Below, piece after piece: positions 5,735 to 59,075 of a stretch of 64,000 nt of DNA (position 1 is the stretch's first letter; every line of letters begins with the position of its first letter). Origin of the DNA: Thermoplasmata archaeon. Lineage in GTDB: Archaea > Thermoplasmatota > Thermoplasmata > Lutacidiplasmatales > UBA184. The notes beneath the pieces are model-generated. The model searched no databases, was not told the origin of the DNA, and saw only the letters and a list, made by a program, of their open reading frames with translations. The translations under genes were made by a program, and so were the position numbers. The stretch is taken from assembly GCA_035622275.1 (NCBI GenBank), contig DASPVQ010000020.1, forward strand, positions 2,494-66,493. The letters run 5' to 3'.

Positions 5735-5799
5735 GCGCCGCCAACGGGCATGGGAGGTTAAGGATTGCAACGGCCCCCACGCGACCCGGGCCGTGGCCG

Positions 5800-21715: not shown

Positions 21716-23680
21716 GTGACGGGTACCCGTCGTCTCGCCGCCATCATGTTCACCGACATGGTCGGCTACACCGCCGCGACCCAGTCGGACGAGACGGGAG
21801 CGCTGCGCCGGCGCGCCGAGCAGGAGACCCTATTGCTGCCGGTCGTGGGGGAGCATGGCGGCCGCAAGGTGAAGTCCACCGGCGACGGCGTCCTGCTCGA
21901 GTTCGGTAGCGCGCTCAAGGCGACGCAGTGCGCGATCGAGATCCAGCGCCGGGTGCGGGAGCGTAACGCCCGCTCTGGCCAGACCCCGATCGAGATGCGG
22001 ATCGGCATCCATCTGGGCGACGTGGAGGTGCAGGACGGCGACATCTTCGGCGACGCCGTGAACCTCGCGGCGCGGGTCGAACCGCTGGCCGAGCCCGGCG
22101 GAGTCTGCCTCTCGGAGGAGGTCTTCTCCCAGGTCCGCAACAAGATTCCCGTCACGATGGAAAAGCTTCCCGCCCAGGACCTCAAGGGCGTCCGGTTCCC
22201 GGTCACGGTGTATCGGGTGCGGATGCCGTGGACCGCTCCCGATGGCCCGGCGAGCCCTGGCGACTCCCAGCGCCTGGCCGTGCTGCCGTTCGCGAACTTC
22301 AGCCCCGATCCCCACGACGAGTACTTCGCGGACGGGCTCACGGACGAGCTGATCACCGTGCTGGCCCAGCTGCAGAGCGTCCGCGTCGTCGCGCGCACGT
22401 CGGTCTTCCAGTACAAGGGGACCACGAAGACCGTCGCCCAGATCGGCTCCGAGCTCGACGTCGCGTCCGTGCTGGAAGGCAGCGTGCGCAAGTCGGACGG
22501 GCGCATCCGGGTGACCGCGCAGCTCATCGACGTGCGCACGCAGGATCACACCTGGGCGGAGTCCTACGACCGGAACCTCTCCGACGTTCTCGAGGTCCAG
22601 TCGGACGTGGCGAAGGAGGTCGCGAAGGCGCTCAAGGTCCGGATCCGGAGCCCCGACGCCCGGGGCCCGGAGGGCAATCGTCCGGTGCAGTCGGAGTCGT
22701 ATCTCGCGTATCTCCGGGGCCGCGCCCTGTTCCTGGAGTCCTTCTCGGAACCGAACCTCAAGGAGGCCCAGTGGCAGTTCGAACGGGCGGTGTCGCTCGA
22801 CCCCAGCAACGCCCGAGCCTACGCCGGGCTATCCGAGGCCACGCACCTCTTGGGCCTCTTCTACGGCCGCCGATCGAAGTCGGAGAACCTCCGCGCGGCG
22901 CGTCAATTCGCCGAGCGGGCCATCGAACTGGATCCGGGCCTGGCCGAGGGTCACAGCGCCCTCGGGCTGGTCCTCTACGACGACCTGGAGTGGGACGGGG
23001 CGGAGCAGGAGGCGCTGGTCGCGCTGGGGCTGAACCCGAGCTACTCGACCGCGCGCCTGTGGTATTCCCTCCTGCTCCAAGAGGAGGGCCGGGTCGACGA
23101 CGCCCTCTCCCAGATGCGAGAGGCGTACGCGTTGGATCCGCAGTCCCGGCAGATCTGCGGTCTGTACACCTTCCTGTTGCTGGTGCTCGAGAGGACCGCC
23201 GAAGTCGAGCCCGTCCTGGAGAAGCTCCGGAGCCTCGACCCGACCGGCCACGAATACCACATGTTCCGGGGCTGGACGCTCTACCTTCGGGGCGATGTCG
23301 ACGGCGCGTTCCGGGAGATCGCCCTGGGCGAGTCCTGTCCCGCCGATCGGCCCGGCGGCCGGGTCGGGGCCTCGTACGAGCGGGCCCAGCTGTACGCCCT
23401 GACCGGCCAGAAGGACCGGGCTCGCGCCCTGATCGCGGAGATTCCGCCCGCGCCCGAGCTGGCCCACCCTCTCATGGATCGGGCGATCACCTATGGGTAC
23501 TTGGGCGACCTCGACGAGTGCTTTCGGCTGCTGAACGAGCAGTACGACATCGGCCACGGAATGCCGCTCCAACGAGTCCGACTTGATCCGAGCCTCAAGG
23601 CGTTGCGCGCGGACTCTCGGTTCGCCGCGTTGCTCAAACTCACGAAGATCCCTGAGGCCTACCGCGGCACCGACCCCTGA
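21716..23680 (+). CDS. class III nucleotidyl cyclase – TolB-N-like – TPR protein
   Basis: MTGTRRLAAIMFTDMVGYT, KSTGDG, GDAVNLAARVE; LAVLPFANFSPDPHDEYFADGLTDELI; TPRs. Confidence 0.85.
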   Translation: MTGTRRLAAIMFTDMVGYTAATQSDETGALRRRAEQETLLLPVVGEHGGRKVKSTGDGVLLEFGSALKATQCAIEIQRRVRERNARSGQTPIEMRIGIHLGDVEVQDGDIFGDAVNLAARVEPLAEPGGVCLSEEVFSQVRNKIPVTMEKLPAQDLKGVRFPVTVYRVRMPWTAPDGPASPGDSQRLAVLPFANFSPDPHDEYFADGLTDELITVLAQLQSVRVVARTSVFQYKGTTKTVAQIGSELDVASVLEGSVRKSDGRIRVTAQLIDVRTQDHTWAESYDRNLSDVLEVQSDVAKEVAKALKVRIRSPDARGPEGNRPVQSESYLAYLRGRALFLESFSEPNLKEAQWQFERAVSLDPSNARAYAGLSEATHLLGLFYGRRSKSENLRAARQFAERAIELDPGLAEGHSALGLVLYDDLEWDGAEQEALVALGLNPSYSTARLWYSLLLQEEGRVDDALSQMREAYALDPQSRQICGLYTFLLLVLERTAEVEPVLEKLRSLDPTGHEYHMFRGWTLYLRGDVDGAFREIALGESCPADRPGGRVGASYERAQLYALTGQKDRARALIAEIPPAPELAHPLMDRAITYGYLGDLDECFRLLNEQYDIGHGMPLQRVRLDPSLKALRADSRFAALLKLTKIPEAYRGTDP

Positions 23681-27244: not shown

Positions 27245-27949
27245 TCACCGAGGAGGAGGTTGCCGGCCGACGCGACGGACCAGTCGTGCCGTGTACCCCG
27301 ACAGGGCCGCGAGCGGCCGGTTCGAGCGCTTCACCTGGGCCGTGAGACGGACCGCACGGGGCCGGTGTTCGATCCGGTCCACCACGAACCTCGACTCGAG
27401 CGGCTCGACCACCTCGCCCACGGAGAGCCGGTGCGGTGGCCCCCACGATCCCGATTCCTCCCGGCCCACCCAGAACAGGATCAGCACCCCGCCGGGGCGC
27501 AACACGCGGGCGAGTCCCTGCGCGTACTCCGCTCGCGTCCTCGGCGGCAGAGTCTGAAAGCATCCGACGTCGATGGCGCCACGGAACGAGCGACCCGGCA
27601 GCGCGCTCGCCAGGATGTCGTCGACGACGAACCGGACGTTCCGCCCGCTCGGCGTCCCTCGGGCCGCGGCGGCCGAGATGGCGCCGGGCGCGAGGTCGAT
27701 CCCGGTCACGCGAAACCCTCGCGATGCCATCCATAGGGCGTTCGTGCCGAGCCCGCATCCGACATCGAGCACGGGCCCGGGACCTACCAGGTCTCCTCGC
27801 TCCACCGCCCGCACGAGCGGCGGGTACGGTGCTCGGGTGAACCAGGGTAGATGTTGCAGTGGCGAGTTCGCATACAGGCGGGTCCACATCGCCCGATCCG
27901 CCGCGGGCATGCCGACCCGGGGGCGGGGGGCGCTCCGTCGCTGGACCAT
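27245..27949 (-). CDS. class I SAM-dependent methyltransferase (TPMT/TehB-like), paralog A
   Basis: VLDVGCGLGTNALWMASRGFRVTGIDLAPGAI...LRPGGVLILFWVGREE; start set by alignment with paralog 58380..59075 and AGCTATTCAT about 29 nt upstream. Confidence 0.7.
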   Translation of the reverse strand: MVQRRSAPRPRVGMPAADRAMWTRLYANSPLQHLPWFTRAPYPPLVRAVERGDLVGPGPVLDVGCGLGTNALWMASRGFRVTGIDLAPGAISAAAARGTPSGRNVRFVVDDILASALPGRSFRGAIDVGCFQTLPPRTRAEYAQGLARVLRPGGVLILFWVGREESGSWGPPHRLSVGEVVEPLESRFVVDRIEHRPRAVRLTAQVKRSNRPLAALSGYTARLVRRVGRQPPPR

Positions 27950-28535
27950 CGTCGTCGGCCAGCCGTGGGCCGCATGAATAGCTGATCGATGTGGACCACC
28001 GTGCTCCGGGGGACCGCACGTGCGAGGGAACGCCTCTCGCACCGCGCTCGGGGTGGTGACCGGGTACTCGCGTCGGGCCGGGGGCGCCGATAAGACCGAC
28101 TCGAGCAGGGGCGGTCTTATCGGCGCCCGGCGGTCGAGATCCGGTTCGAGCCCACCGGGAATCTCCGGCGTGTGCCCAACGAGATCTCGGACGGGCGTGG
28201 GTCGTGCGCTCCCGAGCTCGAGTGTTTTGCCGACCTTCCCGGCCCGGGCTCCGAGTCCGCGGACCCGCGGCCGGAAGGCTTGACGGTCGCCTTCACGGGA
28301 AGCGGCGACGCTCACGCCGCGACGCGATCGGGCGGGAGCCGGAAGCGAGGGAGACCACGTCAGCGCGCGCACGCCCCGCCCGGCCCCGGTCGTGAGCGCC
28401 GGCACGCCGGAGGGCGCGCCCGACGGGGCGCTCCCATTTCCCCAGGGAATCGCGGGTACGCGTGCGTCCTACTTTCGTTCCCCTATCCTCTCTTAACCGT
28501 CTCGGGATGTCGGGACTGCCTCTCCGAGTCGGAAG

Positions 28536-34619: not shown

Positions 34620-35612
34620 TCAGCTTGGCCGGGAGGGTGCCTCAGATGCGCGCGCGAGCACCGTGAGGGCCCGCAGCGTGATCATCTTGCTTGGTTCCCC
34701 GGCCTTCTCGAACGTAAGCGGCGTCGGCCGCTTCGTCGGATGCTGTGCGAACCACTTTGCGCCGTCGGCGTCCGGGTCCGTCTGGGGCGGGCCGATCGCC
34801 CAGCGTCCGTCGAGTCGCTGCTGCTTTCGTAGAAAATCCAGCGCGTAGCGGAGTCTCGGATCGCTCCCGTAGCCGAGGTTTGTGAGGCATTCCAGACCGA
34901 CCAAGAGGTCGTAGTAGTAGTGGACCGGCCAGTGGAAGCGGAACCAGGGCGCGTACGGCTCGCCTTGCCGATGCAGCTCACGCTCCAGGAAGAACTCGGC
35001 CCCGCGCTCGACGCATCGCTGCATCGCGGGGGTCCACTTCGACCGCGGGTACGCTGCAAAGGCGGCGAGGCCCTCCCAGGCGTCGAGCGTACGACCCGCC
35101 GAGACGCCGTCGCGGTCCATCCGGCAGGACCATCCTCCCTTCGGATGCGCCACCCTCACCAGCCAGTCCAGCGTTTTGCGGACCCGCGGATCGTCGCCGT
35201 AGCCGAGCTGGATCAGGGCTCGGGCCATGTTGGCGGTGTAGCAGAAGTGCCCCTTTCCCTGGCCGAACCCTCCCACTCCACCGCCCTGGAGGGGCGAGCT
35301 CCCCATCCAGAACTCGCAGGAGACCTCGATCTCCGGGATGTCCCGCGTCGCCCCGAGATCGGCGAGAGCGAGCATGCTCCAGTTGGTCCCGAGAAATCTA
35401 GGCTCGAGCCAGTTGTGGTCCCGCTCCCACCATCCGGCCGGATTCCGCCGGGAAAGGATCTCCCTCACCCAGGGATCCGTCCGCAGATTCTCTCGAGATT
35501 CCCGGACGCCGGAGACGGAGCCGGACTTGCCAAGAAGACGGGTGAGGGTAAGATACCGCATCGACGGCTGCTGCGGCTCGAGCAGCCAGTCGAGGACCTC
35601 GTCCGCCCGCAC
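34620..35612 (-). CDS. alpha/alpha-toroid QW-repeat protein, paralog of 13911..14864
   Basis: HPKGGWSC, QQRLDGRWAI QW motifs; conserved YYYD..VGLE.LT.LGYG region. Confidence 0.6.
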   Translation of the reverse strand: MRADEVLDWLLEPQQPSMRYLTLTRLLGKSGSVSGVRESRENLRTDPWVREILSRRNPAGWWERDHNWLEPRFLGTNWSMLALADLGATRDIPEIEVSCEFWMGSSPLQGGGVGGFGQGKGHFCYTANMARALIQLGYGDDPRVRKTLDWLVRVAHPKGGWSCRMDRDGVSAGRTLDAWEGLAAFAAYPRSKWTPAMQRCVERGAEFFLERELHRQGEPYAPWFRFHWPVHYYYDLLVGLECLTNLGYGSDPRLRYALDFLRKQQRLDGRWAIGPPQTDPDADGAKWFAQHPTKRPTPLTFEKAGEPSKMITLRALTVLARASEAPSRPS

Positions 35613-35737: not shown

Positions 35738-37354
35738 TTGAAGGAGCTCGGGCCCAGCACGGCTAAGAGAGCCGACGCGTCACCCGCGCGAGCGGGTGTG
35801 GTTTCCATGGACTCGACGACGAACGACGCTGCCTGGGAGCGCCGGGGCCGTTCCTGGTGGTCCCACGTGCGCGTCCTCGCTGACGATCAGATGGAGGGCC
35901 GTGAGACCGGCTCCCCGGGATACGAACGAGCGGCGGCGTACGTCACGGAGCAGTTTCGGATCGCGGGACTCGAGCCTGCGGGCGTAGAGGGGTACCGTCA
36001 GCCGGTCGACCTTGCGGTCTCCACGTTGGATCAGGGCGCGAGTTCGTTGACCATCGTTCGCGACGGGGCGACCCGGTCCGTACGCATCCCAGAGGAGGCT
36101 CAGTTCATCGTCACGTCGGCCACGGTGTCGGACATCGAGGCCGACGCAGTCTTCGTGGGATATGCGCTCGAGATCCCGGAGCACGGCTACAGCGATCTGG
36201 CCGGACTGGACCTACGCGAGAAGATCGCCGTGTTCGTCCTGGGCGGGCCCGCGGACCTGCCCGGGCCCGTCCGAGCTCACCACCAATCCCGGTCGGAGGT
36301 CTATCGGGCGCTGAGGAGGGCCGGGGCCGCCGGCTTCGTCCTGGTGCAGAATCCGAGCGTGCCCGAGGCTCCATGGTCCCGGTTCGCGAGCGGGCAGCTC
36401 TTTCCCCGGATGGAGCTGCTGGGCTCCGACCGAGGAGAGCGGCGTCCCCTTCCGTTGACGGCCGCGTTCGACCACGAGCATCTGGACCTCCTTTTCGAGG
36501 GGAGCGGGCACCGCGCGTCCGAGGTGCTGGCGAGCCTGGGGAAACCTGGCCCGCTGCCGCGCTTTCCCCTTGCGGTACGATTGCGCGCGCATGTCGAAGT
36601 TCGACGCTCGACGGCGCGGTGCACCAACGTCGTCGGCGTCCTGCCGGGGAGCGACCCGACCCTGCGCCACGAGTACGTCGTGGGAACCGCCCATCTCGAC
36701 CACCTCGGGATCGGCGAGCCGATCCACGGTGACTCGATCTACAGCGGAGCCATGGACAACGCCTCCGGCGTCGCCGCCCTGATCGAGATCGCGCGTGCGA
36801 TGAAGGACGCCGCGGAGCGTCCCCGGCGATCGATCCTGTTCGCCGCGGTGACGGCCGAAGAGCAGGGTCTCCTCGGCTCGGAGCACTTCGCGAACCATCC
36901 CACCGTCTCGGGGCCGATCGTCGCGGACCTGAACATGGACATGTTCCTCCCGCTATTTCCCCTCCGGTTCGTCGAGGTACAGGGTCTCGACGAGTCGACG
37001 CTCGGCCCGACGCTTCGGGCCGCCGCGCACCAGGTGGGCGTGACGGCCGATGCCGAGTACCTTCCCGATCGCAAACTGTTCATTCGCAGCGACCAGTACA
37101 GCTTCGTGAAGACCGGGGTTCCCGCCCTGATGGTGTCCATCGGCTACGCCCGGGGCTCGCCCGAGGAACAGGCGGTGGTCGCGTTCCTGCGCGATCGCTA
37201 CCACGCGCCCGCGGACGACGCCGACCAGCCCGTGAACCTCACGGCGGCCGCACAGTTCACCGACCTCCTGCGTCGCGTGATCCTGCAGGTCGCGAACGAC
37301 CCCGGGCGCCCTCAGTGGAATCCGGATAGCTTCTTCCGGAGGTTCGCTCGGTAG
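35738..37354 (+). CDS. M28-family zinc aminopeptidase with PA domain
   Basis: HLDHLG...GAMDNASGVAALIEIARAM...EEQGLLGS. Confidence 0.75.
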   Translation: MKELGPSTAKRADASPARAGVVSMDSTTNDAAWERRGRSWWSHVRVLADDQMEGRETGSPGYERAAAYVTEQFRIAGLEPAGVEGYRQPVDLAVSTLDQGASSLTIVRDGATRSVRIPEEAQFIVTSATVSDIEADAVFVGYALEIPEHGYSDLAGLDLREKIAVFVLGGPADLPGPVRAHHQSRSEVYRALRRAGAAGFVLVQNPSVPEAPWSRFASGQLFPRMELLGSDRGERRPLPLTAAFDHEHLDLLFEGSGHRASEVLASLGKPGPLPRFPLAVRLRAHVEVRRSTARCTNVVGVLPGSDPTLRHEYVVGTAHLDHLGIGEPIHGDSIYSGAMDNASGVAALIEIARAMKDAAERPRRSILFAAVTAEEQGLLGSEHFANHPTVSGPIVADLNMDMFLPLFPLRFVEVQGLDESTLGPTLRAAAHQVGVTADAEYLPDRKLFIRSDQYSFVKTGVPALMVSIGYARGSPEEQAVVAFLRDRYHAPADDADQPVNLTAAAQFTDLLRRVILQVANDPGRPQWNPDSFFRRFAR

Positions 37355-37458: not shown

Positions 37459-38895
37459 TCACTTCGGAAGCGCGAACCGATAGACGCTGACCGGGTTGCT
37501 CACGTTCTTCAGCCGCGTCTGGGCCAGCTCGTCCATCTTGACCGGGACCTTGTTCCACACCTGGTCGTAGACCTGCTGCGTCGCGCAGATCCCGCCGGGC
37601 TCGGCCATCGGCTCGATCCGCGAGGCGATGTTCACCGCGTCCCCGAGGATATCGCCGCCGACCGAGACCAGGTCCCCCACGTGCAGACCGATCCGCAGCT
37701 GGATCGGATCTCGACGACGCCCTTCGTTCCGCTTGCGCAATCGGCGCTGGATCTCGATCGCGCACTTCGCGGCATCGAGCGCGCTCGAGAACTCGAGGAG
37801 GAAGGCGTCCCCCATGGTCTTGATCTCGCGCCCCTTGTGGCGGGGGTACGCCGCGCGCACCAGGAGTCGATGCTCCTCCAGGAGCTTGAGCGCGCGCGCC
37901 TCGTCCTTTTGCGCCAGCGTCGTGAAGCCGACCATGTCGGTGAACATGATGGCGGCGAGACGGCGCTCCGTGATCGGTCGGTCGTGAGCTTCGGTCGTGA
38001 CGAGCACGTCCTGGACCCGTCCCGAGGGCCGGCGAACACTCAGGCGGACCTTCGGCTCGGCTTCGGGGCCGGAGAGCGCCTTGCCGAGCCGCTCGCTCCA
38101 GTCGCTGACGTTCTCGGACATGTTCGTCCCGTTGCCGACCCGAAGCCCGTCGAGCGCGACCACCGAATCCCCTCGGTCCAAGCCCGCCCGTAGCGCCATG
38201 CTGGCCGGGCGGGCCGGACTCAGCATCCCGATACCGGCGGTGGGCGGCACCTTGGGGTCCATCGCGGCCCGCCAGAGATCCATCAGCATCGCGGTGCCGT
38301 GGGTCCCGCACATGCAGATGCCGAGCCCACACGAGGGACACACGCACCGACATTCGAGTCCCTCCCGGCTCAGCTCCCACACGGTCACGTCCGACACCAG
38401 CGTGTGCAGGATCTCGACGCTCTGAGCGTAGTCCTTCAGGCACTCTTCGGCGATGTCGGCGGAGTTGCCCTCGTCCATGCCGCCCCAGTAGCTGTCGCAC
38501 TGGCGGTGCGCGACGACGTGGAGGACCGAGTAGCCGAACGTGGCCTCGGCGATGAGCGAATACAGCACCTGGAGCGCTACCGTCGGGGCCAGCTTGTCGC
38601 TCAGGGCCACCGGGACCACCGGCGGAGAACCCACGCGGACGGTCGTCCTCGGATCGGGACCCCCGATGCCCAGCATCCGGACCCTCCAGCCTTCGAGGTG
38701 GTCTGCGGCCATGGTCTTGAGACGGCCGAGCAGCGCCGTGGCCCCCGCGTGCTCCTTCAGGGACTTCGAGATCGGTCCGAGCGCTTCGAGGATCTGTCCC
38801 TCGACCGCGACCATGTGCGAGATGTAGTCGATCTCTCGCGCCCGATGCGGCCCGGAGTACAGTCCGGGCCCATGCGGCCGGTCGGTCCGCGACAT
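37459..38895 (-). CDS. multidomain sensor nucleotidyl cyclase: N-terminal helical domain – Cys cluster (CRCVCPSCGLGICMCG) – PDZ-like – CHD cyclase
   Basis: C-terminal RRLAAIMFTDMVGFT, KTMGDAFLLEF, GDAVNIASRIE; eight-Cys cluster; PDZ-like GDSVVALDGLRV; ATG MSRTDRP chosen. Confidence 0.7.
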   Translation of the reverse strand: MSRTDRPHGPGLYSGPHRAREIDYISHMVAVEGQILEALGPISKSLKEHAGATALLGRLKTMAADHLEGWRVRMLGIGGPDPRTTVRVGSPPVVPVALSDKLAPTVALQVLYSLIAEATFGYSVLHVVAHRQCDSYWGGMDEGNSADIAEECLKDYAQSVEILHTLVSDVTVWELSREGLECRCVCPSCGLGICMCGTHGTAMLMDLWRAAMDPKVPPTAGIGMLSPARPASMALRAGLDRGDSVVALDGLRVGNGTNMSENVSDWSERLGKALSGPEAEPKVRLSVRRPSGRVQDVLVTTEAHDRPITERRLAAIMFTDMVGFTTLAQKDEARALKLLEEHRLLVRAAYPRHKGREIKTMGDAFLLEFSSALDAAKCAIEIQRRLRKRNEGRRRDPIQLRIGLHVGDLVSVGGDILGDAVNIASRIEPMAEPGGICATQQVYDQVWNKVPVKMDELAQTRLKNVSNPVSVYRFALPK

Positions 38896-39008: not shown

Positions 39009-39785
39009 CTAGCGCGAACCCGCGAACTCCTTCACGACGCGCAGCAGGCTCTCGGGAGCCTCCAGCTGGGGCAGATGGCCGGCCTCCTCGATGATCTCGA
39101 GTCGGGCATTCGGGATCGACGACGCGAAGGCTTCTCCGTGCTGCCGTGGGATCATTCGGTCCGCGGCGCCCCACACCACCAGTGTCGGGAGGTGGATGGC
39201 GGGAAGGCGGCCGAGCAGCGTCGGATCGGCCATGGACGGCCCGCCGTAGAGCTTCAGGGCGGCCCGATTGCCGGCGACCGCCGCCCGCTGCGGATCCGAC
39301 ATCTTGCTGGGATCGATCCGGAATCTCTGCGGATCCCGATAGCTCATCTGACCGATCTGATCGAGCGAGAGGGAGAACACGTCCGGGGCGGGATGCGCGT
39401 CGATCGTGAGTCCGCCGGCATCCACAAGAACGAGACGCCCAAGTCGCGAGCCGCCGCGGAGCGCGAGTTCTGCCGCGATCCACCCGCCGATCGAGTTTCC
39501 AACCAGGACGACATCGCGGAGTTCGAGCTGATCCATCCAGGCGAGGTACAGCTCGGCGAGCCCCGCCACGCTACGGAGGTGCTCCGGACGCGGTGTTCCG
39601 TTGAATCCGGGGTGCACCGGCACGATCGCCCGAGCGCCGCCGCTCCCTCCCAGCATCTCGGCGAAACGGTGGGTAGAGGCGGGCCCGGCACCCCCATGCA
39701 GGATCACGAACGGGCGGCCCGAACCCCACTCACTCGCCGTCACGACGACGTCTCCGTTCGGCGTCGGCACGTTCACCGGCTCCAT
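39009..39785 (-). CDS. alpha/beta hydrolase fold protein
   Basis: VILHGGAG...VLVGNSIGG nucleophile elbow G-x-S-x-G, D and H later. Confidence 0.75.
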   Translation of the reverse strand: MEPVNVPTPNGDVVVTASEWGSGRPFVILHGGAGPASTHRFAEMLGGSGGARAIVPVHPGFNGTPRPEHLRSVAGLAELYLAWMDQLELRDVVLVGNSIGGWIAAELALRGGSRLGRLVLVDAGGLTIDAHPAPDVFSLSLDQIGQMSYRDPQRFRIDPSKMSDPQRAAVAGNRAALKLYGGPSMADPTLLGRLPAIHLPTLVVWGAADRMIPRQHGEAFASSIPNARLEIIEEAGHLPQLEAPESLLRVVKEFAGSR

Positions 39786-43303: not shown

Positions 43304-45898
43304 ATGGGTGCGCTCCGTTGGCCGCTCCTGGTGCTGGTAGCCGCGATTGCTGCGATCATGGTCGTGCCCTCTCCGGCGGGCCTCGCCTCGCCGGCTGCCC
43401 CCCGAGGGGCTACGCTCGCCGCGTTACCGAGCTCTTCGGCCGCCGGGCCAGTCGCGGCGGAGCCGGCGCATCCGGCGGCGCCGGCGCCCGCCACGGCCCA
43501 AGTCCGAGCGCAAGATATCGAAGCGCGCATGACATCGTCCCTGGCCCGCGACGGCATCCCGGCAGCTGAACAGCTCCTCCCGAACCTCATGTCTCAGACG
43601 AGCGTGAAGGACGGGCAGATCGTACCGGCGCCCGCGACAGTGCCTTCGCCGATGGGAGTCGCGGATTACGGCATCCAGGAGGTGGGCGGCGTGAACGTTC
43701 CGACGCTGAACTTCTATCAGAGCATCGCGGGGCGATTCACGATGAACGAGATCGGCCTGAACTACCCCAACAGTGCCGGCCCGGATGAGTTCTCCCTGCA
43801 ACTCAACACGGTGGCCTCCAACGTCACGCTCTTCGGCAATTCGAGCTACCAGTTCTGGACGCAGAACGTCGTCTACTACTTCCAGAGTACGCACAGCCTG
43901 CATCTCTTGGACGCGATCGTCAACTTCACCAACAGCGACTTCAACTTCTCACCGAACACAATCATCGAGGGAAACGGGTTCTACTATCCCGGGTTCGGCT
44001 ACTTCTATCCGTACGGACCCGATCTGACGGTGCCCGAGCCATTCACGATCAACTTCTACAACAACCTGACCGTACAGGACGGCGACTCGGCGATCTACTT
44101 CAACTACTCCGTCAGCTCGCCGGACGGAATCCAGTCGGGGTCCTTCGACCTGGTGGTGTTCAACTCTCAGCCGCTCAGCGGGCCGGCGATCACCTCGGTG
44201 TCGCCGTTGTTCGAGATCAACGGCTATCAGCTCACCGGGACCGGCTTCATCCCCTACGACGCCGAGATGATTCTCGGAGGGGACGGGGGCGGCTCGACGG
44301 CGTCGATCTTCGACATCAACGCCGAGGTCCAACTGTTCCTCGAGGCGGCCGGCGCGAGCAGTTACAGCCCGATCCCAGCGGGATACTCGTTTGGCAGCGA
44401 GACCGGAGAGACCGTGTCCGGAGTTGCCGAATGGGCGTCCGGCGGCCCGGACCCCGTGGTCCATCTCGGGCCGGGTCCCGCGAACCTCGGTCCGCTGTTC
44501 GGGGTCCTCGGTGCTCCACCGACCGGCTATGTCACGCAGACGCTCAACGTCCAGCCGACGAACGCGTTCATCTTCGGCTCGCTCGGCAGCACCTTCAACG
44601 CGAACACGGCCGCGTGGGGTCCGGTGCCGACGTCCGGACGGGCGACCTATCTGCTGCCCCCGGGGACCTACAGCTACGACGTGATGCTGAGCGATCACGA
44701 TCCGGTGCTCGTGACCATCTCGGGGTCCGGATCGGCGGTGATCCGCCTGCGGACGGACTGGTCGCAAGGGGTCTACACGCCGCTCTGGGCCTTCGATAAC
44801 GCGCAGCTGGCGGCAATCTCGCTCCCCGGAGGCTCCGGCTCGCAGCGGAACCCCTACCTCCTCGACAACAACGGCGTCGCGCAGCTCGACCCGCTGTTCA
44901 GCACCTTCAACGACTACATCTTCTGGCAGTTCCCCGGCGTCTTCCTCTCGGGCACCACGGCCTACGTCGCGCTGTACCAGGCGCCGTCGTTCACCGCGCC
45001 GCTCTCGCTGTCGTGGGAGGTCGCCTACAGCTACAGCGCTTACCTCCCGCCGACGACTCAGCTGACGATCTACCTGTACGCCACCGACCACGCGTCCGTG
45101 GTCGACTGCTCGGACATCGGCGGTTGGTGGTTCGTCTCGGACGTCGGCGAGTCGGAGGCGAACCTGGTGCTCTGGAACGCTACCGACACGCTGGTCGCGG
45201 GGAACACGTTCCAGGACTCGAGCATCTCCATGTTCACCTTTGGCGGCGCCGGCAACGTGCTGTGGGGCAACGTCTTCGAGACCTACCTCGATCCGGCCGC
45301 GCCGTACCCGGGGTTCATCCTCAACTACGGCATCCCCCAGGCCCTCCAGGAGTGGGAATCGGGGGACCTGATCTACAACAACGCGTTCGACACTCCCCAG
45401 ACCGCGGTGAGCCCGCCCTACAGCATCTACTCCTTCTACGGTGTCCCTGAGACCTGGACGGACAGCTGGGACGTCATCCCCCAGCCCGCGTTCCTGCTGT
45501 CGTACGTCAACGGCTGGCGGCTCACCGGGAGCATCCTCGGCCTCCCGTACGTGGCCGGCAACTTCTGGTCGAACTACGGCTCGGGCGCGGACCCGTACGG
45601 CGAGCTCCCCTACAACGACAGCGGGGCGATCGCCTACGGCGGGGATTACTTCCCCGTCGTCCCCTACCCGCTCTACGACATCGTGTTCATCGAACACGGG
45701 CTCCCCCATGGGACCGAGTGGTCGGTGACCATGAACGGCTTTACGCAGTCGACGACCGGGCGCACGCTCGTCTTCGAGGATCCGACGGGATCGTATCCGT
45801 TCGCGGTCGCCACGACCTCGAGCTACACGCCGACCCCGGCCTCGGGGGTGGTCGTCCTGACGAGCCACAGCGTCGTCGTGGTCGTGTACTGGAGCTGA
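43304..45898 (+). CDS. large secreted N-glycosylation-sequon-rich protein with a beta-helix-like central region and one C-terminal 'GLPxGTxW' repeat (thermopsin-like?)
   Basis: Signal peptide; many NxS/T; parallel beta-helix-like turns (LVAGNTFQDS, NVLWGNVFE); C-terminus YDIVFIEHGLPHGTEWSVTMNG matches the repeat of 18527..21586. Confidence 0.75.
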   Translation: MGALRWPLLVLVAAIAAIMVVPSPAGLASPAAPRGATLAALPSSSAAGPVAAEPAHPAAPAPATAQVRAQDIEARMTSSLARDGIPAAEQLLPNLMSQTSVKDGQIVPAPATVPSPMGVADYGIQEVGGVNVPTLNFYQSIAGRFTMNEIGLNYPNSAGPDEFSLQLNTVASNVTLFGNSSYQFWTQNVVYYFQSTHSLHLLDAIVNFTNSDFNFSPNTIIEGNGFYYPGFGYFYPYGPDLTVPEPFTINFYNNLTVQDGDSAIYFNYSVSSPDGIQSGSFDLVVFNSQPLSGPAITSVSPLFEINGYQLTGTGFIPYDAEMILGGDGGGSTASIFDINAEVQLFLEAAGASSYSPIPAGYSFGSETGETVSGVAEWASGGPDPVVHLGPGPANLGPLFGVLGAPPTGYVTQTLNVQPTNAFIFGSLGSTFNANTAAWGPVPTSGRATYLLPPGTYSYDVMLSDHDPVLVTISGSGSAVIRLRTDWSQGVYTPLWAFDNAQLAAISLPGGSGSQRNPYLLDNNGVAQLDPLFSTFNDYIFWQFPGVFLSGTTAYVALYQAPSFTAPLSLSWEVAYSYSAYLPPTTQLTIYLYATDHASVVDCSDIGGWWFVSDVGESEANLVLWNATDTLVAGNTFQDSSISMFTFGGAGNVLWGNVFETYLDPAAPYPGFILNYGIPQALQEWESGDLIYNNAFDTPQTAVSPPYSIYSFYGVPETWTDSWDVIPQPAFLLSYVNGWRLTGSILGLPYVAGNFWSNYGSGADPYGELPYNDSGAIAYGGDYFPVVPYPLYDIVFIEHGLPHGTEWSVTMNGFTQSTTGRTLVFEDPTGSYPFAVATTSSYTPTPASGVVVLTSHSVVVVVYWS

Positions 45899-47611: not shown

Positions 47612-49564
47612 TCACTTGGTCGTGGGGTCGGGCAGGTAGTACCGCGACAGGAGCTCGAGGAACCTCAGGTCCCTCCTCGCCCCGGCGAACAGTGGAGAGA
47701 GGCGGATTCGCGCGAGCTGCAGCGTGTGCTCCTTGACGGCGAGGTGCATGCACTCGAAGAACCGGTCCAGGTCCCCGAGCGCGTAGTAGATGAACCCGAT
47801 GGAGTTGTGCGAGCGCGCGCTGCCCTGGTACCGCGCCTCGCTCATCCGGGCGATCACCTTCATGGCGGTGGCCCGGTCGCCCTGGACCCCGGCGAGGTAG
47901 CCTCGGCAGAGCAGCGCGTTGTCGCTCGTGGGCGCGATGCGCTCGAGCTCCCGGACGCTGCGCTCCGCCTGCTCGAGATCCCCGGTGTAGATGTAGTACT
48001 CCACGAGCCCGCGATAGGCGTTGATCGGACTCTGCTCCGCATGCCTCTTCCAGTGCGCGAGGGCGTCGTCGAGGCGACCCGAGGAGAAGTACGCGTCGCC
48101 GAGCCGGCGGATCGTCTCCGTCGAGAGGGGGTCGAGGTGGTAGGCTTCCTCCGCCTGGAGGATGTAGGACTCTCGTACGCCGAAGGTCGCCGCCATCGCC
48201 GTGAGGATCGAGTGACCCTGGGCCAGGTTCGGGTTCAGCTCGAGGGCCCGTCGCACCTCCCGGTTCAGCACGTCGGACGGCTCGTCGGCCATGAAGGCGA
48301 GCTCGCCCCGCGCGGCGTGCGCCTCGGCGAGGTCGGGGTCGACAGCGCAGGCCTTCTCGGCGGCCGCCCGGCCGAGCTTGATGGCTTCCATCCAGGGCGT
48401 GAACCCCTCGGCGCCGAGGCCGATGTAGGCGCGGGCGAGGCCGGCGTACGCCCGGGCGAAGGTCGGGTCGGTCCGGATCGACTTCTGGAAGAACGCCACC
48501 GACTGCCGCAGCGAGTCCTCGTCCTGGTGCCACATCAGCGCCGTTCCCTGGAGGTAGTCCAGGTAGGCCTCCGTCGCGGTCGGCTTCTCGAGGGTGGGAA
48601 CCGGGGCTCGGGCCTTCTCCAGGCTGCGGGGCAGCGAGGTGGCGACCTTCGTCGCGATGTCGCTCTGGACCGCGAAGATGTCGTTGAGGTCGTCATCGTA
48701 CTTCGATGTCCACAGGTGCTCCTCGGTCCCGACATCGATGACCTGGACGGTGACCCGGATCCGGTTCGCGGCGCGCCGGACGCTGCCCTCGACGATCGTG
48801 CCGACCCCGAGCTCCTTGCCGATCGTCGCGACCGACTTGTCGGTCTTCTTGTAGCCGATCACGGACGTCCGGGCGATCACCTTGAGGCCCGGGACGAGCG
48901 AGAGGTTCGCGATCAGCTCCTCCGTCATCCCGTCCGCGAAGTACTCGTCGCTGGGGTCCGGGCTGATGTTCGCGAAGGGCAGCACCGCGAGCCGGCTGGG
49001 ATCCGGAGGGCTCGAGTCCTCGGCCGCGGCGGGGTGACCATTGTCGCTCCACGGCAGCACCACCCGGTAGACGTCGATCGGCGACTGGAGCCCCTTGAGC
49101 TCCTGGGCGGGGAGCTTAGAGAACTTGTCCGGCACCTTGGTGCGGACCTGGTCGTAGACGGCCCCCGAGACGCAGATGCCGCCCGGTTCTGCGAGCGGTT
49201 CGAGGCGGGCCGCGATGTTCACCGCATCGCCGAGGATGTCCGCGCCGTTGCGCACGACGTCGCCGAGATGGACCCCGATCCGGATCCGGATCGGGGCGTG
49301 ACCGCCCTCGGAGTTCTGTTCGAAGAGGCGACGCTGGATGTTGACCGCGCACTGCACGGCCCGCAGGGCGCTGTCGAACTCGACGAGGAACCCATCGCCC
49401 GTGGACTTGATCTCGTGCCCCTGGTGGAGCGCCAAGAGCGGGCGGACCAGCTCGGCTTGCTGTCGTAACGAGTCGAGCGCCCGGCCCTCGTTGGCCTGCG
49501 TGGACGCGGTGTAGCCCACGGTGTCGGTGAACATTACGGCCGCGAGACGGCGCCCGGTCGCCAC
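47612..49564 (-). CDS. class III nucleotidyl cyclase – TolB-N-like – TPR protein
   Basis: VATGRRLAAVMFTDTVGYT (GTG start by homology with MTGTRRLAAIMFTD of 21716); KSTGDG; GDAVNIAARLE; LAVLPFANISPDPSDEYFADGMTEELI; TPRs; CTTATCTC about 25 nt upstream. Confidence 0.8.
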   Translation of the reverse strand: MATGRRLAAVMFTDTVGYTASTQANEGRALDSLRQQAELVRPLLALHQGHEIKSTGDGFLVEFDSALRAVQCAVNIQRRLFEQNSEGGHAPIRIRIGVHLGDVVRNGADILGDAVNIAARLEPLAEPGGICVSGAVYDQVRTKVPDKFSKLPAQELKGLQSPIDVYRVVLPWSDNGHPAAAEDSSPPDPSRLAVLPFANISPDPSDEYFADGMTEELIANLSLVPGLKVIARTSVIGYKKTDKSVATIGKELGVGTIVEGSVRRAANRIRVTVQVIDVGTEEHLWTSKYDDDLNDIFAVQSDIATKVATSLPRSLEKARAPVPTLEKPTATEAYLDYLQGTALMWHQDEDSLRQSVAFFQKSIRTDPTFARAYAGLARAYIGLGAEGFTPWMEAIKLGRAAAEKACAVDPDLAEAHAARGELAFMADEPSDVLNREVRRALELNPNLAQGHSILTAMAATFGVRESYILQAEEAYHLDPLSTETIRRLGDAYFSSGRLDDALAHWKRHAEQSPINAYRGLVEYYIYTGDLEQAERSVRELERIAPTSDNALLCRGYLAGVQGDRATAMKVIARMSEARYQGSARSHNSIGFIYYALGDLDRFFECMHLAVKEHTLQLARIRLSPLFAGARRDLRFLELLSRYYLPDPTTK

Positions 49565-49729
49565 GTGAATTGGATGACATCCATGAGATAAGGGTGCGGT
49601 CATCGCTCGCCGCCGCCCCTCGCCCGAGCGAGGGCGGCCGCCGGGCCGCGGAGGGCGGTCCGAGCGCTCGGCCGCGCCGGCGCGAACAAGTAGGTCCGTG
49701 CGGTATACGGTTCGCGGAGGCGCGCGACG

Positions 49730-50191
49730 ATGGTGTATGTGAAGGACGAAGGGAGCCTGTTCGACGCGCCGATCGACTTCGTCTGGAAGTACATCTTCGG
49801 CGGAGCGGACCACGATTCGGCCCACACGACGACCCGGAGCCCGACGTTCGGCAAGGTGTCGGAGATCACCTTCACGTATGGCTCGGAGCGGCACCTACGT
49901 GGCGTGTGGGCGCCGGATAAGCTGCGCATCTCCATGTTCCCGCCGGTGGCCGTCGCGACCGAATGGCTGGAGGGGGTCCTGGCGGACTCGAAGCTGGTGT
50001 ACGTGTACTCGCCCGCGGGCGACCAGACTCGCATCGATGTCTACGGTGACTTCCGGTCGAAGACGCTGCCCGCATCCGAGGTCGAGGCCGCCGCCCGCGA
50101 GTTCCTCGAGACGGAATTCCGGGACGACGCCTCCGCGATCCGAAGAGCGTACGCCAAGGAAATGGGTTCCACCGGGACACGCGACGGGTGA
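49730..50191 (+). CDS. small SRPBCC-like protein, paralog A
   Basis: MVYVKDEGSLFDAPIDFVWKYIFGG...; divergent from cyclase 47612..49564; paralog at 63410..63850. Confidence 0.55.
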   Translation: MVYVKDEGSLFDAPIDFVWKYIFGGADHDSAHTTTRSPTFGKVSEITFTYGSERHLRGVWAPDKLRISMFPPVAVATEWLEGVLADSKLVYVYSPAGDQTRIDVYGDFRSKTLPASEVEAAAREFLETEFRDDASAIRRAYAKEMGSTGTRDG

Positions 50192-52695: not shown

Positions 52696-53160
52696 CTACC
52701 GTCGCACGACGAACTCGACCCGACACTGGGCCCAGGCTCTCCGGTTCGTCCAAGGGCTACCGAGGTACACCTCGCGGACCGCCCCCACGGATCGAATCGT
52801 GCCGTCCTTTCGACGGGCGCGGGTCCAATCGATCAGCCCGTGGTAGACGAGGCGCGGCGAGATCCGCTCGGGGTCGAACGTGACGGTAGCTACCCACTCG
52901 GACGGCAGGGTTCGCAGACGGATCCGCCCGTCGGAGGCGGGGTGTCCCCCGATCTCGAGACACGCCTCCCAGCGGTGGCGGCCGCGGTCGACGAAGATCC
53001 AGCGGCCGGTGCGCAGATGGTGGTGCGCTGCCCAGCGGACGAGCTCCGCGAACTCGGTCCGAAGATTGTCCTCCTTCCACCGCCCGATCCGGACGATCGA
53101 AGCGACGCGGCGGCGGCGAGCTCGCGCCAGAGAGAAATCCACCCGACAGGACCTCTTCAT
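52696..53160 (-). CDS. hypothetical small protein (possibly GyrI-like effector-binding fold)
   Basis: Weak; divergent from the HTH_10 regulator with start codons sharing a CATG. Confidence 0.3.
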   Translation of the reverse strand: MKRSCRVDFSLARARRRRVASIVRIGRWKEDNLRTEFAELVRWAAHHHLRTGRWIFVDRGRHRWEACLEIGGHPASDGRIRLRTLPSEWVATVTFDPERISPRLVYHGLIDWTRARRKDGTIRSVGAVREVYLGSPWTNRRAWAQCRVEFVVRR

Positions 53161-54037
53161 GGGGTCGCGGACCGTGGAGGCATGCCCGGCGCGGGAGATA
53201 GGCTTGGAGCCGTCCGTGGGCGGCTGCACGCAGTTATCCGCGGACGACGATCGCGCTGTCGTGGCCGTCGTGGACGCTCGCGTCCGGGTGCATCACCCCT
53301 GTCCGTACTGCGACCTCTCCGGGGAGTTCCCGCGCACGCTCCTGCTGCTATGGTGCGACAACCGTCGCGATGTCTTCGTCGCGTCCTCTCCTGACGAGGG
53401 AGAGCTACGTCGCGTGGTGCGGGCGTTTCGGGCCTCCTTTCGTGCCCGAACGCTGCTCGAGAGCGGCAAGGACGCCGTGGTGAGCCTGGCAGAGTTCGAG
53501 TGGGCCGACCCGCCCTCGGTGACCGGCATCGCCCGGAAATCCGGGGTCTGGGTCCTGCACCCGGTCGTCTACTTCGGAGGCACCGAGACCTACCGGCTCG
53601 TCTCTCCCTCGAGTTCGCGCCTGAACGCGTTCCTGCAGCGGGTGCGGCGGCTCGGCGACCTCGAACTCCTCTCGGTCTCCACCCGGGCCGACATCGGTGA
53701 TGTGCGGGACCTACCGGCGGCCGCGGTGCACTTCTTCGAGGGTCTCACGGACCGACAAGCTCGGTCGCTGGTCGCCGCGTTCGAGGGCGGTCTGTTCGAT
53801 GTGCCCGCCCGGTCGAGTTGGGACGCGGTCGCCCGGAACGAGGGCCTGTCGTGGTCCACTTTCGGAGAGCACCTGCGAAAAGCCCAGCTCCGACTGCTGG
53901 CCAACAGCTACTCGGCCCTGAAGGCGCGCAGCGGTCGTGCGGAGACCCCGGTCCTGCTGCCGCGGATCGGGTCCCGTCGCCCGAGTCGTAGAGCCCCGTT
54001 GCGGGGAACGCGCTCGACCGGAGCCCCGGACGGCTAG
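53159..54037 (+). CDS. HTH_10 (bacterio-opsin activator-type) family transcriptional regulator
   Basis: C-terminal LTDRQARSLVAAFEGGLFDVPARSSWDAVARNEGLSWSTFGEHLRKAQLRLL is a near-consensus HTH_10 motif, a largely archaeal family. Confidence 0.55.
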   Translation: MGSRTVEACPAREIGLEPSVGGCTQLSADDDRAVVAVVDARVRVHHPCPYCDLSGEFPRTLLLLWCDNRRDVFVASSPDEGELRRVVRAFRASFRARTLLESGKDAVVSLAEFEWADPPSVTGIARKSGVWVLHPVVYFGGTETYRLVSPSSSRLNAFLQRVRRLGDLELLSVSTRADIGDVRDLPAAAVHFFEGLTDRQARSLVAAFEGGLFDVPARSSWDAVARNEGLSWSTFGEHLRKAQLRLLANSYSALKARSGRAETPVLLPRIGSRRPSRRAPLRGTRSTGAPDG

Positions 54038-57522: not shown

Positions 57523-58164
57523 TCAACTCCGCGCCTTGACCGGGCCGGACGGCGTCGGCCGGCCGGGTCGCGGTGACATCGACGACGCGGGGGTTGACCC
57601 ACGACGTCCGGTTCGCCGGCCGAGTTTCTTCCTGCGAACGTCGCGCCTGCGAGGCACGTCTGCCAACGCCGCCGCTTCCGGGAGGGACGCCGCGTACTCG
57701 ATGAGCCGCATCCCACCCCAGTTCCGGTACCGGCCGGTGCGCCGGAAGCCCTGGCGCTCGTAGAATCGCATCGCGCGTCGGAGCGGCGGGGTGGTTTCGA
57801 GCGTGACGCGGTGACACCCCCGACGATGGGCGAAGCGCAGCGCGGCGCGCAAGAGACGGTTCGCCACCCCCGTCCCCTGCCGTTCGCGAGGGACCGCCAT
57901 GCCCCGGAGGCGGGCGTGGGACGCGGCGCTCAGGCGGACCGACACGGTGCCGAGAATCCGCGAGTGGGTGTCCGTCGCGACGAGCACGTGCTGAACCCTC
58001 AGGCGGCGGGCGAGGCGGCGCGCGTCCAGCACGGTGGCCGAGAACGCCACCGCGGTGTAGCGACGACGATAGGGCGCGAACGCATCGCGGAGGCAGGCGA
58101 GGATCGGGGCGACGTCGGATAACCGCGCGCCACGAATTCTGATGCGCCGCGCTTCTCGTGCCAT
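57523..58164 (-). CDS. GNAT family N-acetyltransferase
   Basis: RGMAVPRERQGTGVANRLLRAAL...FYERQGF. Confidence 0.6.
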   Translation of the reverse strand: MAREARRIRIRGARLSDVAPILACLRDAFAPYRRRYTAVAFSATVLDARRLARRLRVQHVLVATDTHSRILGTVSVRLSAASHARLRGMAVPRERQGTGVANRLLRAALRFAHRRGCHRVTLETTPPLRRAMRFYERQGFRRTGRYRNWGGMRLIEYAASLPEAAALADVPRRRDVRRKKLGRRTGRRGSTPASSMSPRPGRPTPSGPVKARS

Positions 58165-58379
58165 GCCAGCTCCGACACGCGTCCACCGGCGATATGGATG
58201 TCCCCTGCCCCGACGCCGACCCGGTCGGGGGGTTCACCCCCTTCGGGCGAGCCAACGCAACGCGGCCGACATGCATCGACCCGACGACCGGAAGCCTGCG
58301 CGATTCGCGCGAACCCGAGACCGCCGGCGGTCAAACTCATTATCTCAAGGTCCTGCGAGGTCATCCGCGGAGAATCGGC

Positions 58380-59075
58380 ATGGATCCCAAGCGGTCGAAG
58401 CACCGGCCGAGTGTGCGTACCGGTCTCTCTCGGACCGAGCGCGCGGCCTGGGCCCAGACCTACGCGCGGACCCGCTACTCGAGGCTGCCCTGGTTCTCCG
58501 TCCGGCCATCGCCGCTGCTCGTTCGCGCCGTCCGGGAGCGCTGGCTCACGACCTCGCGCCGCGTGCTCGACGTCGGTTGCGGTGCTGGAACGAACGTGCT
58601 GTGGTTGGCGCAGCGGGGATTTCGGGCGTTCGGGGTCGACATCGCCCCGGGGGCGATCGCCGCGGCCCGCTCGCGGGGTGAGGCCGCCGGTGTGCGGGCG
58701 AGTTTCCAGGTCGGGGAGGCGACCCGCCTACCGTTCCCTCGTGCGCACTTCGGAGCGACGATCGACTTCGGCTGCTTCCACTCCCTTCCGCTCCGTCTTC
58801 GGGCGCGCTACGCAGCGGAAATCGCGCGCGTCCTGCGTCCGGGCGGCACGTTCGTGCTGGCGTGGATCGGGAGAGAGGAGACCCGATCGTACGGGCCACC
58901 CCATCGTCCCTCGCTGAACGAGGTGACGCGCGTCTTCGAGCCTCGGTTCGTCTTTTCGTCCGTCCAGCACCACCCACCGGAGGCGCAGGGCGCCTGGAGG
59001 ACGCCGGGGGGTTCCCTCGCGCTCTATGCGGCTCGTCTCGTGCGGCGAACGGCTCCGCAGCCGCGCCCCCGGTGA
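58380..59075 (+). CDS. class I SAM-dependent methyltransferase (TPMT/TehB-like), paralog B
   Basis: VLDVGCGAGTNVLWLAQRGFRAFGVDIAPGAI...LRPGGTFVLAWIGREE; about 50% identical to 27245..27949 over the full length. Confidence 0.7.
   Translation: MDPKRSKHRPSVRTGLSRTERAAWAQTYARTRYSRLPWFSVRPSPLLVRAVRERWLTTSRRVLDVGCGAGTNVLWLAQRGFRAFGVDIAPGAIAAARSRGEAAGVRASFQVGEATRLPFPRAHFGATIDFGCFHSLPLRLRARYAAEIARVLRPGGTFVLAWIGREETRSYGPPHRPSLNEVTRVFEPRFVFSSVQHHPPEAQGAWRTPGGSLALYAARLVRRTAPQPRPR

Follow-up and report, generated by a model that had tools for sequence, protein, structure and literature searches.

Analysis of a 64,000-nucleotide stretch of the genome of a Thermoplasmata archaeon (contig DASPVQ010000020.1; hereafter the window) indicated that the gene at positions 37459..38895 of the minus strand codes for a predicted sensor adenylate cyclase of 478 amino acids (aa), in which a ferritin-like four-helix bundle, a six-cysteine knot and a PDZ domain precede a class III cyclase homology domain (CHD). 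The open reading frame, defined by its translation and its homologs, starts with the ATG at 38895 and stops at 37459-37461, as an earlier sequence-only reading of the window had proposed, and its product (P0001) was identical to a database entry named 'adenylate/guanylate cyclase domain-containing protein [Thermoplasmata archaeon]', encoded on a 247-kb contig. The 19-residue Kyte-Doolittle mean of the product peaked at 1.43, under the usual transmembrane cut-off of ~1.6; since no stretch reaches transmembrane hydrophobicity, the protein is predicted to be soluble and cytoplasmic.

We propose, tentatively but as a serious possibility, that this protein is a one-component sensor adenylate cyclase gated by a multi-metal thiolate centre. 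The six thiolates of the knot would hold a centre of the Zn2Cys6, Cu(I)4Cys6 or Fe-S kind, which would pin the fifth helix and the PDZ domain against the bundle, near the linker to the output domain. If the thiolates were oxidised, or if metal were gained, lost or exchanged, the PDZ domain would be released or repositioned, and this movement would alter the pairing of the two cyclase domains and switch the synthesis of cyclic AMP (cAMP).

The N-terminal module and its three forms

No known sensor family of Pfam or NCBIfam was recognised in the N-terminal region, and the N-terminal domain of the window protein had no Pfam match even at E <= 10; a well-known cyclase-fused sensor domain, which would have spoken against the sequence-only reading, was thus not found in the two databases. 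A search with residues 1-305 retrieved 45 proteins, of which 38 carried the full architecture (39-81% identity over the query) and seven, of 273-296 aa, ended after the PDZ domain; 44 homologs of the protein, at 32-81% identity, were counted. When 1.84 billion cluster representatives (clusters at 50% identity) were searched with a profile of the N-terminal domain and the knot, 318 representatives were matched at E <= 1e-3 and 184 at E <= 1e-10, nearly all of them of ~260-290 aa. The best 150 of the 318, which were 20-38% identical to the window protein, were taken for alignment and Pfam analysis. Bundle, six-cysteine knot, fifth helix and PDZ domain always occurred together and in the same order; this comparison supports the view that residues 16-300 form one conserved evolutionary module, with the PDZ domain probably a part of the input and not an independent add-on.

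The stand-alone form of the module, ~276 aa long and annotated only as 'PDZ domain-containing protein' or 'hypothetical', was in the majority and was found in metagenome-assembled genomes (MAGs) of Gammaproteobacteria, Chloroflexota, Actinomycetota, Thermodesulfobacteriota and Heimdallarchaeota LC_3 and in one Thermoplasmata MAG (L028). The LuxR-fused form, of ~385-394 aa, ends in a LuxR/GerE helix-turn-helix (HTH) domain and comprised more than 50 clusters with about 60 proteins from Dehalococcoidia, SAR202, other Chloroflexi and Gemmatimonadota. The cyclase-fused form was found, in a scan of species-representative genomes, in Thermoplasmata MAGs only (L007-L013); these included at least six differently named MAGs from two naming series (JOPF and SMAG_U). 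Pfam assigned GerE to 13 of the best 150 representatives and the cyclase to one, and the combination with a cyclase, which the sequence-only reading did not recognise, is a rare one. A 476-aa protein (P0088) considered as a further architecture was rejected, as it holds no extra domain and looks like a frameshifted call.

Since the module is joined to two unrelated outputs, the LuxR HTH and the cyclase, which is a hallmark of input domains, it is predicted to be the signalling input domain of one-component proteins. The earlier description of the protein as a sensor gained support from this second type of output. The same comparison supports the view that the module is older than the cyclase fusion, and that it was probably joined independently to the LuxR HTH in bacteria and to the cyclase in Thermoplasmata.

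It seems to us scarcely credible that the gene entered an archaeal MAG through mis-binning of bacterial DNA, or that it is a pseudogene in decay. Class III cyclases are typical of bacteria, and neither a tRNA scan nor an Rfam scan of the window gave a hit, which leaves it with no tRNA or rRNA as a taxonomic anchor; however, the fused form recurs in the Thermoplasmata MAGs named above and, within the species-representative set, was absent from bacterial genomes; the gene also has an uninterrupted reading frame, and its catalytic residues were invariant in 38/38 homologs. The window also codes for a thermopsin-family peptidase (43304-45895, plus strand; E 1.3e-47) and for an HTH_10 protein of the bacterio-opsin-activator type (52880-54034, plus strand). 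Both proteins belong to archaeal-type families; the window yielded no other taxonomic anchors, and these two are consistent with the MAG labels.

The six-cysteine knot

The knot was delimited by conservation to residues 178-200 (38296..38364, minus strand) and has the form G-L-E-C182-x-C184-x-C186-P-S-C189-x2-G192-x-C194-x-C196. Its peptide, ECRCVCPSCGLGICMCGTHG, contains six cysteines (C182, C184, C186, C189, C194 and C196) with the spacing C-x-C-x-C-x2-C-x4-C-x-C. The sequence-only reading had described a cluster of eight cysteines: the cluster is real, but it holds six, and eight are counted only with C133 and C152, two additional cysteines located in the helical domain. Its C-x-C-x-C-x2-C and C-x-C elements were right, while the distance between them is x4 instead of the x5 that had been given.

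Alignment of the 45 homologs revealed that the six cysteines, P187 and G192 were invariant. All six cysteines were kept in 121 of the best 150 representatives, most of the others being fragments, and each of them stood at 92-99% in the distant representatives having a residue there. The six cysteines with their fixed spacing, together with P187 and G192, were more than 90% conserved down to ~20-25% overall identity, and the cluster is, as judged from these alignments, not a chance feature. Among the 38 fused homologs the mean identity was 88% in the Cys segment, 80% in the CHD, 57% in the bundle and 47% in the PDZ domain. The knot was the most conserved part of the module, and the six cysteines, for which the sequence-only reading had asked whether homologs keep them, ranked with the best-conserved features of this large family.

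The first five cysteines were near-invariant. The sixth, C196, was present in 46/46 cyclase-fused and 213/215 stand-alone proteins and in only 19/62 LuxR-fused proteins, in which it is usually replaced by Gly; one of the two stand-alone exceptions has the same Cys motif as a LuxR-type protein truncated at its contig end. Alignment of 54 LuxR fusions showed Gly at the position equivalent to C196 in 38 of them and an invariant Cys (54/54) in the linker between the PDZ domain and the HTH (C290 in P0074, for example), which in many lies within the motif D-(D/E)-C-(V/I)-Q. Some LuxR fusions carry CPCC, with an extra Cys at the position of S188. The simplest reading of this exchange between C196 and the linker Cys is that six ligands are needed and that the centre may lie next to the output linker. 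If six thiolates are needed, more than one metal ion is favoured over a single zinc or a disulfide.

Several results weigh against gating by a multi-metal centre. Both C196 and the linker Cys were kept in 15 of the 54 aligned LuxR fusions, and the loss of C196 in the presence of the linker Cys may reflect one or two evolutionary events, which makes it weak evidence of covariation. The peptide of the knot gave chance-level matches only in the PDB, with no relative in solved structures, and the six conserved cysteines could be a purely structural zinc knot. The AlphaFold model of the full-length protein had a predicted template modelling score (pTM) of 0.57, with an uncertain inter-domain arrangement and a poor last 40 residues. 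The gene neighbourhoods of the cyclase-fused homologs were not conserved among the loci examined, and no metal- or redox-homeostasis genes were present in them.

The conservation of the knot and the breadth of the family also bear on a non-sensing role, in which the N-terminal module would dimerise or scaffold a cyclase that is constitutive or regulated at the level of transcription. Ferritin-like bundles commonly oligomerise. Oligomers are formed by YciF (bioRxiv 10.1101/2023.01.20.524870), and class III cyclases require dimerisation (PMC4626032), both of which would suit a scaffold; nevertheless, more than 50 clusters show this module attached to a DNA-binding output, with a linker Cys that does not vary, stand-alone forms of it are counted in hundreds, and scaffolding alone would hardly explain the extreme conservation of six cysteines. 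We consider such a role very improbable.

The bundle, the PDZ domain and the cyclase domain

The bundle occupies residues 16-177 (38365..38850, minus strand) and was defined by AlphaFold, Foldseek and profile searches. The AlphaFold model of residues 16-215, with an alignment depth of 108 sequences, reached a predicted local distance difference test score (pLDDT) of 87 and a pTM of 0.83, and consisted of four long helices (16-46, 50-76, 104-131 and 145-177; pLDDT ~90), a Cys-bearing loop and a fifth helix, in agreement with the helical N-terminal domain noted from the sequence alone. In the model the topology of the bundle is up-down-down-up with a long B-C crossover, as in the ferritin-like superfamily. 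A Foldseek comparison with the PDB returned ferritin-like proteins for 50/50 among the matches listed (DPS-like proteins, bacterioferritins and 'thioferritin'), the best superposition being that on 3hiu (TMt 0.89, root-mean-square deviation 2.7 Å); the E-values were weak, with a best of 4.5e-3.

A broader family profile of 33 sequences (A6) matched 3hiu in the PDB at E 5.6e-4 over the full length, YciE (3ogh) at 0.017 and YcfI (2gyq) at 0.034, whereas a narrow profile of nine sequences (A3) gave no ferritin-like match there. Pfam DUF892 (PF05974) was matched by seven of the best 150 representatives, with a best E of 6.3e-7. Because of the A6 profile and the Pfam matches of family members, the N-terminal domain is assigned to DUF892 (YciE/YciF), as a predicted ferritin-like four-helix bundle that is both divergent and degenerate.

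Alignment to 3hiu indicated that E32 corresponds to the helix-A Glu, H/Q66 to the helix-B Gln and Y122 to the conserved Tyr of DUF892, while the helix-C Glu is replaced by A118 and the helix-D Glu by Y156. Because these two Glu have become Ala and Tyr, the canonical di-iron site appears to be degenerate in this family, with half of its ligands lost. In Salmonella YciF, iron binding and ferroxidase activity require Q54, E113 and E143 (bioRxiv 10.1101/2023.01.20.524870). A polar core was nevertheless conserved among the representatives, with E32 at 96% (127/132), Y122 at 95%, R131 at 90%, H152 at 83%, Y156 at 77% and E174 at 87%, and it also includes H/Q66 and D134.

Such a remodelled core (E32, H/Q66, Y122, H152 and Y156) could itself be the sensor, with iron or another metal, O2 or a small molecule as its ligand, the cysteine knot being then structural or an electron relay. 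The homology to DUF892, of which the iron-binding ferroxidase YciF is a member (bioRxiv 10.1101/2023.01.20.524870), agrees with this possibility, as do the two ligand positions kept at E32 and, with His or Gln, at 66, and the conserved His and Tyr residues that lie at about the same height of the bundle by an estimate of helix register. The replacement of the helix-C and helix-D Glu leaves no canonical di-iron site, however, and two positions of the core vary: position 66 is His in 69/134 representatives and Gln in 50/134, and position 152, a His in the family, is occupied by Cys in the window protein and by Leu in many of the Thermoplasmata homologs. As the bundle is also less conserved than the knot (57% vs 88%), a sensing bundle is in our judgement distinctly unlikely.

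The fifth helix (residues 201-215; 38251..38295, minus strand) follows the cysteine knot and leads into the PDZ domain. A helix at 196-212 was present in both AlphaFold models, that of the full length and that of residues 16-215, and its W208 was found in 94/130 representatives.

The PDZ domain (residues 220-300; 37996..38238, minus strand) was identified from the matches of relatives and from column conservation. The window protein itself matched PDZ_6 at residues 228-259 with 16.6 bits, under the cut-off of 27 (E 0.0068), but the same segment passed the Pfam cut-offs in relatives, with 54.7 bits for PDZ_2 in P0042 (1.2e-14) and 31.5 bits for PDZ_6 in P0039, and PDZ models were matched by ~108 of the best 150 representatives. 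The region was modelled as a beta/alpha domain with a pLDDT of 80-90. A PDZ domain (PF17820/PF13180) of the bacterial HtrA/PDZ_2 type is thus supported through the homologs only, as is the PDZ-like segment of the sequence-only reading. The low score of the window protein is probably due to an 11-residue insertion, MSENVSDWSER (residues 259-269; 38068-38100, minus strand), which lengthens a helix of the PDZ domain and was limited to the closest Thermoplasmata homologs, being absent from nearly all other family members. The G-Φ-x-Φ loop of PDZ domains is the place where the terminal carboxylate of the ligand is bound; this loop is retained, with G221 in 107/130 representatives and hydrophobic residues at 222 and 225, and the S-x-A-x-x-A-G-L-x-x-G-D signature of HtrA-type PDZ domains is likewise conserved (S232, A234, A237-G238-L239 and G242-D243).

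With its binding loop and signature in place, the PDZ domain could be the true input: it would bind a C-terminal or internal peptide, either of a partner or of misfolded proteins as in DegS or RseP, and so relieve or impose inhibition of the cyclase, while the knot would be a structural zinc staple. The domain directly precedes the CHD, with a linker of 10 residues between them; most family members lack an output domain and must therefore act by protein contacts; and one bacterium has two stand-alone paralogs beside a cyclase-TPR gene. On the contrary, a single structural zinc needs four ligands and not six near-invariant ones, the PDZ domain is less conserved than the Cys segment in the fused homologs (47% vs 88% mean identity), and no conserved partner gene stood beside the cyclase-fused genes at the loci examined. 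We therefore regard a PDZ input with a zinc staple as unlikely. The linker itself (residues 301-310; 37966..37995, minus strand) was modelled with low confidence, the pLDDT being below 50 at residues 304-310, and, in contrast to the linker between PDZ domain and HTH in the LuxR fusions, it is free of Cys.

The CHD (residues 311-478; 37462..37965, minus strand) was identified by Pfam, by its solved relatives and by its catalytic residues. Guanylate_cyc (PF00211) matched residues 314-446 with 61.4 bits against a cut-off of 21.9 (E 1.1e-16), and the closest solved cyclase domains were 3mr7 (E 8e-33), Ma1120 and Rv1900c, within a range of E from 8e-33 to 7e-14; the C-terminal class III cyclase recognised by the sequence-only reading was thus verified. 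The catalytic set, assigned by motif, is complete, with D320 and D363 for metal, K359 and D415 for adenine, and N422 and R426 for the transition state; FTD holds D320, KTMGD holds K359 and D363, and GDILGDAVNIASR covers the part of D415, N422 and R426. The spacings K+4=D, D+7=N and N+4=R, which are the canonical class III pattern, were all present, and the six residues were invariant in the 38 fused homologs, in keeping with the six-catalytic-residue rule for class III cyclases (PMC4626032). The Lys/Asp pair K359/D415 is predicted to specify ATP as the substrate, and it is well supported, at the level of sequence, that the CHD would form a head-to-tail homodimer converting ATP to cAMP. Class IIIc is defined by a 7-residue dimerisation arm between beta4 and beta5 (PMC4626032); in the window protein the distance from HVGD to GDILGD was ~7 residues (DLVSVGG), with the limits of the arm read from motifs.

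Four further class III cyclase genes were found in the window, at 3788-6007 (minus strand), 21716-23677 (plus strand), 47615-49894 (minus strand) and 8588-11920 (plus strand); they code for three CHD-TPR proteins and one CHD-AAA_16/NACHT protein. The cyclases of the window represent a lineage-specific expansion in this Thermoplasmata MAG. The CHD of the sensor cyclase was 50-55% identical to those of the three CHD-TPR paralogs and 28% identical to that of the CHD-AAA_16 gene. Because of the identity to the CHD-TPR paralogs, and because the stand-alone module exists in a Thermoplasmata MAG, the fusion most likely arose within the Thermoplasmata lineage from a local CHD paralog and a stand-alone module.

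Gene neighbourhoods, known systems and significance

The cyclase gene lies between the two neighbours named in the sequence-only reading, both of which were confirmed: an M28 peptidase gene at 35738-37354 (plus strand), which converges on it from the downstream side, and an alpha/beta hydrolase gene at 39009-39785 (minus strand), a separate gene located 113 bp upstream on the same strand. Both were rejected as partners of the system, since neither was conserved beside the homologs. Because the closest CHDs belong to hydrolase-cyclase fusions, a split LipJ lipase/cyclase was also considered, and it was rejected: the NCBIfam model LipJ (NF058673) scored 73.8 bits against a cut-off of 800, with an alignment limited to the CHD, and the adjacency of the hydrolase was not conserved. 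The M28 peptidase gene is adjoined by a gene at 34623-35612 (minus strand) for a 330-aa protein with a repeat of the squalene-hopene-cyclase C-terminal type (E 1.9e-7).

Genes for TPMT/TehB-like methyltransferases were found twice in the window, at 27248-28405 (minus strand) and 58158-59072 (plus strand), and once at the locus of homolog P0004 (L005 5113-5754), where the gene is divergent and upstream of the homolog. Some TPMT/TehB-like enzymes methylate thiols or selenium or tellurium compounds. The homolog at L005 also stands beside two cyclase-TPR genes, and a hydrolase-cyclase fusion gene is located near the homolog at L002. At L001 9669-10106, on a 377-kb contig and 240 bp downstream of homolog P0023, a gene for a 145-aa cyclic nucleotide monophosphate (cNMP)-binding protein was identified, a candidate cAMP receptor; no counterpart of it was seen in the window or at the other Thermoplasmata loci examined.

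In several Chloroflexota lineages a 58-aa DUF1059 gene lies directly beside the stand-alone or LuxR-fused module (L018 5680-5853, L023 5652-5825, L024 6824-6997, L025 6791-6964, L041 7139-7315, L043 6317-6493 and L045 6348-6524), and it adjoined 3/3 LuxR-fused relatives looked up. Its products have the pattern MxKTYTCRDVGxDCDWK...H-x4-H with C-x6-C, that is two Cys and two His; one of them was only 37-43% identical to the others, the pairing with the module being kept. DUF1059 may be a regulated target or a partner of the module. It was not found in the window or at the other Thermoplasmata loci examined, and no functional description of this uncharacterised family was found in the literature searched. 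At a locus of one bacterial population (L030 4001-7970; also L031-L034), a cyclase-TPR gene has as back-to-back neighbours two stand-alone paralogs, of 277 and 266 aa, that are encoded on opposite strands, with genes for a GerE protein and an HDOD protein nearby; this arrangement is a possible unfused equivalent of the fusion seen in Thermoplasmata.

Comparison with described systems gave partial likenesses only. In Mycobacterium phlei AC-YHS, a class IIIc cyclase, copper switches on the enzyme via a Cys-rich YHS domain on an 8-residue linker (PMC4626032). Both AC-YHS and the window protein are soluble single-CHD cyclases with the six catalytic residues and a Cys-containing domain on a linker of ~8-10 residues, but the sensor of AC-YHS is C-terminal, of ~50 aa, with one Asp and three Cys and of unrelated sequence, whereas that of the window protein is N-terminal, of ~290 aa, made of three parts and has six Cys with a predicted role in metal binding. 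Rv1900c/LipJ, Ma1120 and 3mr7 provide the closest solved catalytic domains, and an alpha/beta hydrolase gene lies directly upstream of the window gene; unlike the hydrolase of Rv1900c/LipJ, that of the window is a separate gene that is not conserved beside the homologs. The DUF892/YciE-YciF proteins (PF05974; 3hiu, 3ogh, 2gyq and 4ERU) share the fold, a full-length profile similarity, the helix-A Glu, the helix-B Gln/His and the helix-C Tyr. They are free-standing stress proteins, whereas the bundle of the window family has two di-iron carboxylates replaced, carries the six-cysteine knot, the fifth helix and the PDZ domain as appended parts, and is used within a signalling protein.

The LuxR-fused relatives from Dehalococcoidia, SAR202 and Gemmatimonadota MAGs, annotated as 'LuxR C-terminal-related transcriptional regulator', have the same module order and were 22-27% identical to the window protein; they differ in the GerE HTH output, in a sixth Cys that is often Gly, in the invariant linker Cys and in the DUF1059 neighbour. 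Among Cys-rich metal or redox switches are the CxC...CxxC zinc centre of Hsp33, the CxCx4CxC of CopY, fungal Zn2Cys6 and the Cu4Cys6 copper fist. The knot resembles these in motif type only, having CxC and CxxC elements within 15 residues and six thiolates, but no sequence or structural relationship of any of them to it was detectable.

No description of the bundle-Cys6-PDZ architecture was found in the literature searched, including that on archaeal class III cyclases. By 2015, 1369 architectures of class III cyclases had been counted in InterPro (PMC4626032), and one more is not surprising in itself. In archaea, cAMP has been detected, yet a 2023 review stated that no archaeal protein making, degrading or binding it had been identified, and the archaeal 'class IV' cyclase candidates proved to be triphosphatases (PMC10249747). 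A catalytically complete class III cyclase in several Thermoplasmata MAGs, together with the four other cyclases of the window, is accordingly a testable candidate for an archaeal cAMP synthase.

The interest of the protein is raised by its archaeal host, by the hint from covariation on coupling to the output, and by an undescribed, widespread input module. The module is absent as a family from Pfam and NCBIfam and is nevertheless present in hundreds of protein clusters from Chloroflexota, Proteobacteria, Actinomycetota, Gemmatimonadota, Heimdallarchaeota and Thermoplasmata, with two signalling outputs. In its widest form, our proposal would make bundle, six-cysteine knot and PDZ domain an unrecognised, widespread cytoplasmic sensor module whose six-thiolate multi-metal centre reads metal or redox status and signals via the adjacent linker, and the Thermoplasmata protein the first identifiable signal-regulated cAMP synthase of Archaea; taken as a whole, we hold this to be doubtful. 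As its production of cAMP is a direct read-out, the cyclase fusion would be the simplest of the family to assay, and its signal, once known, would annotate the whole family.

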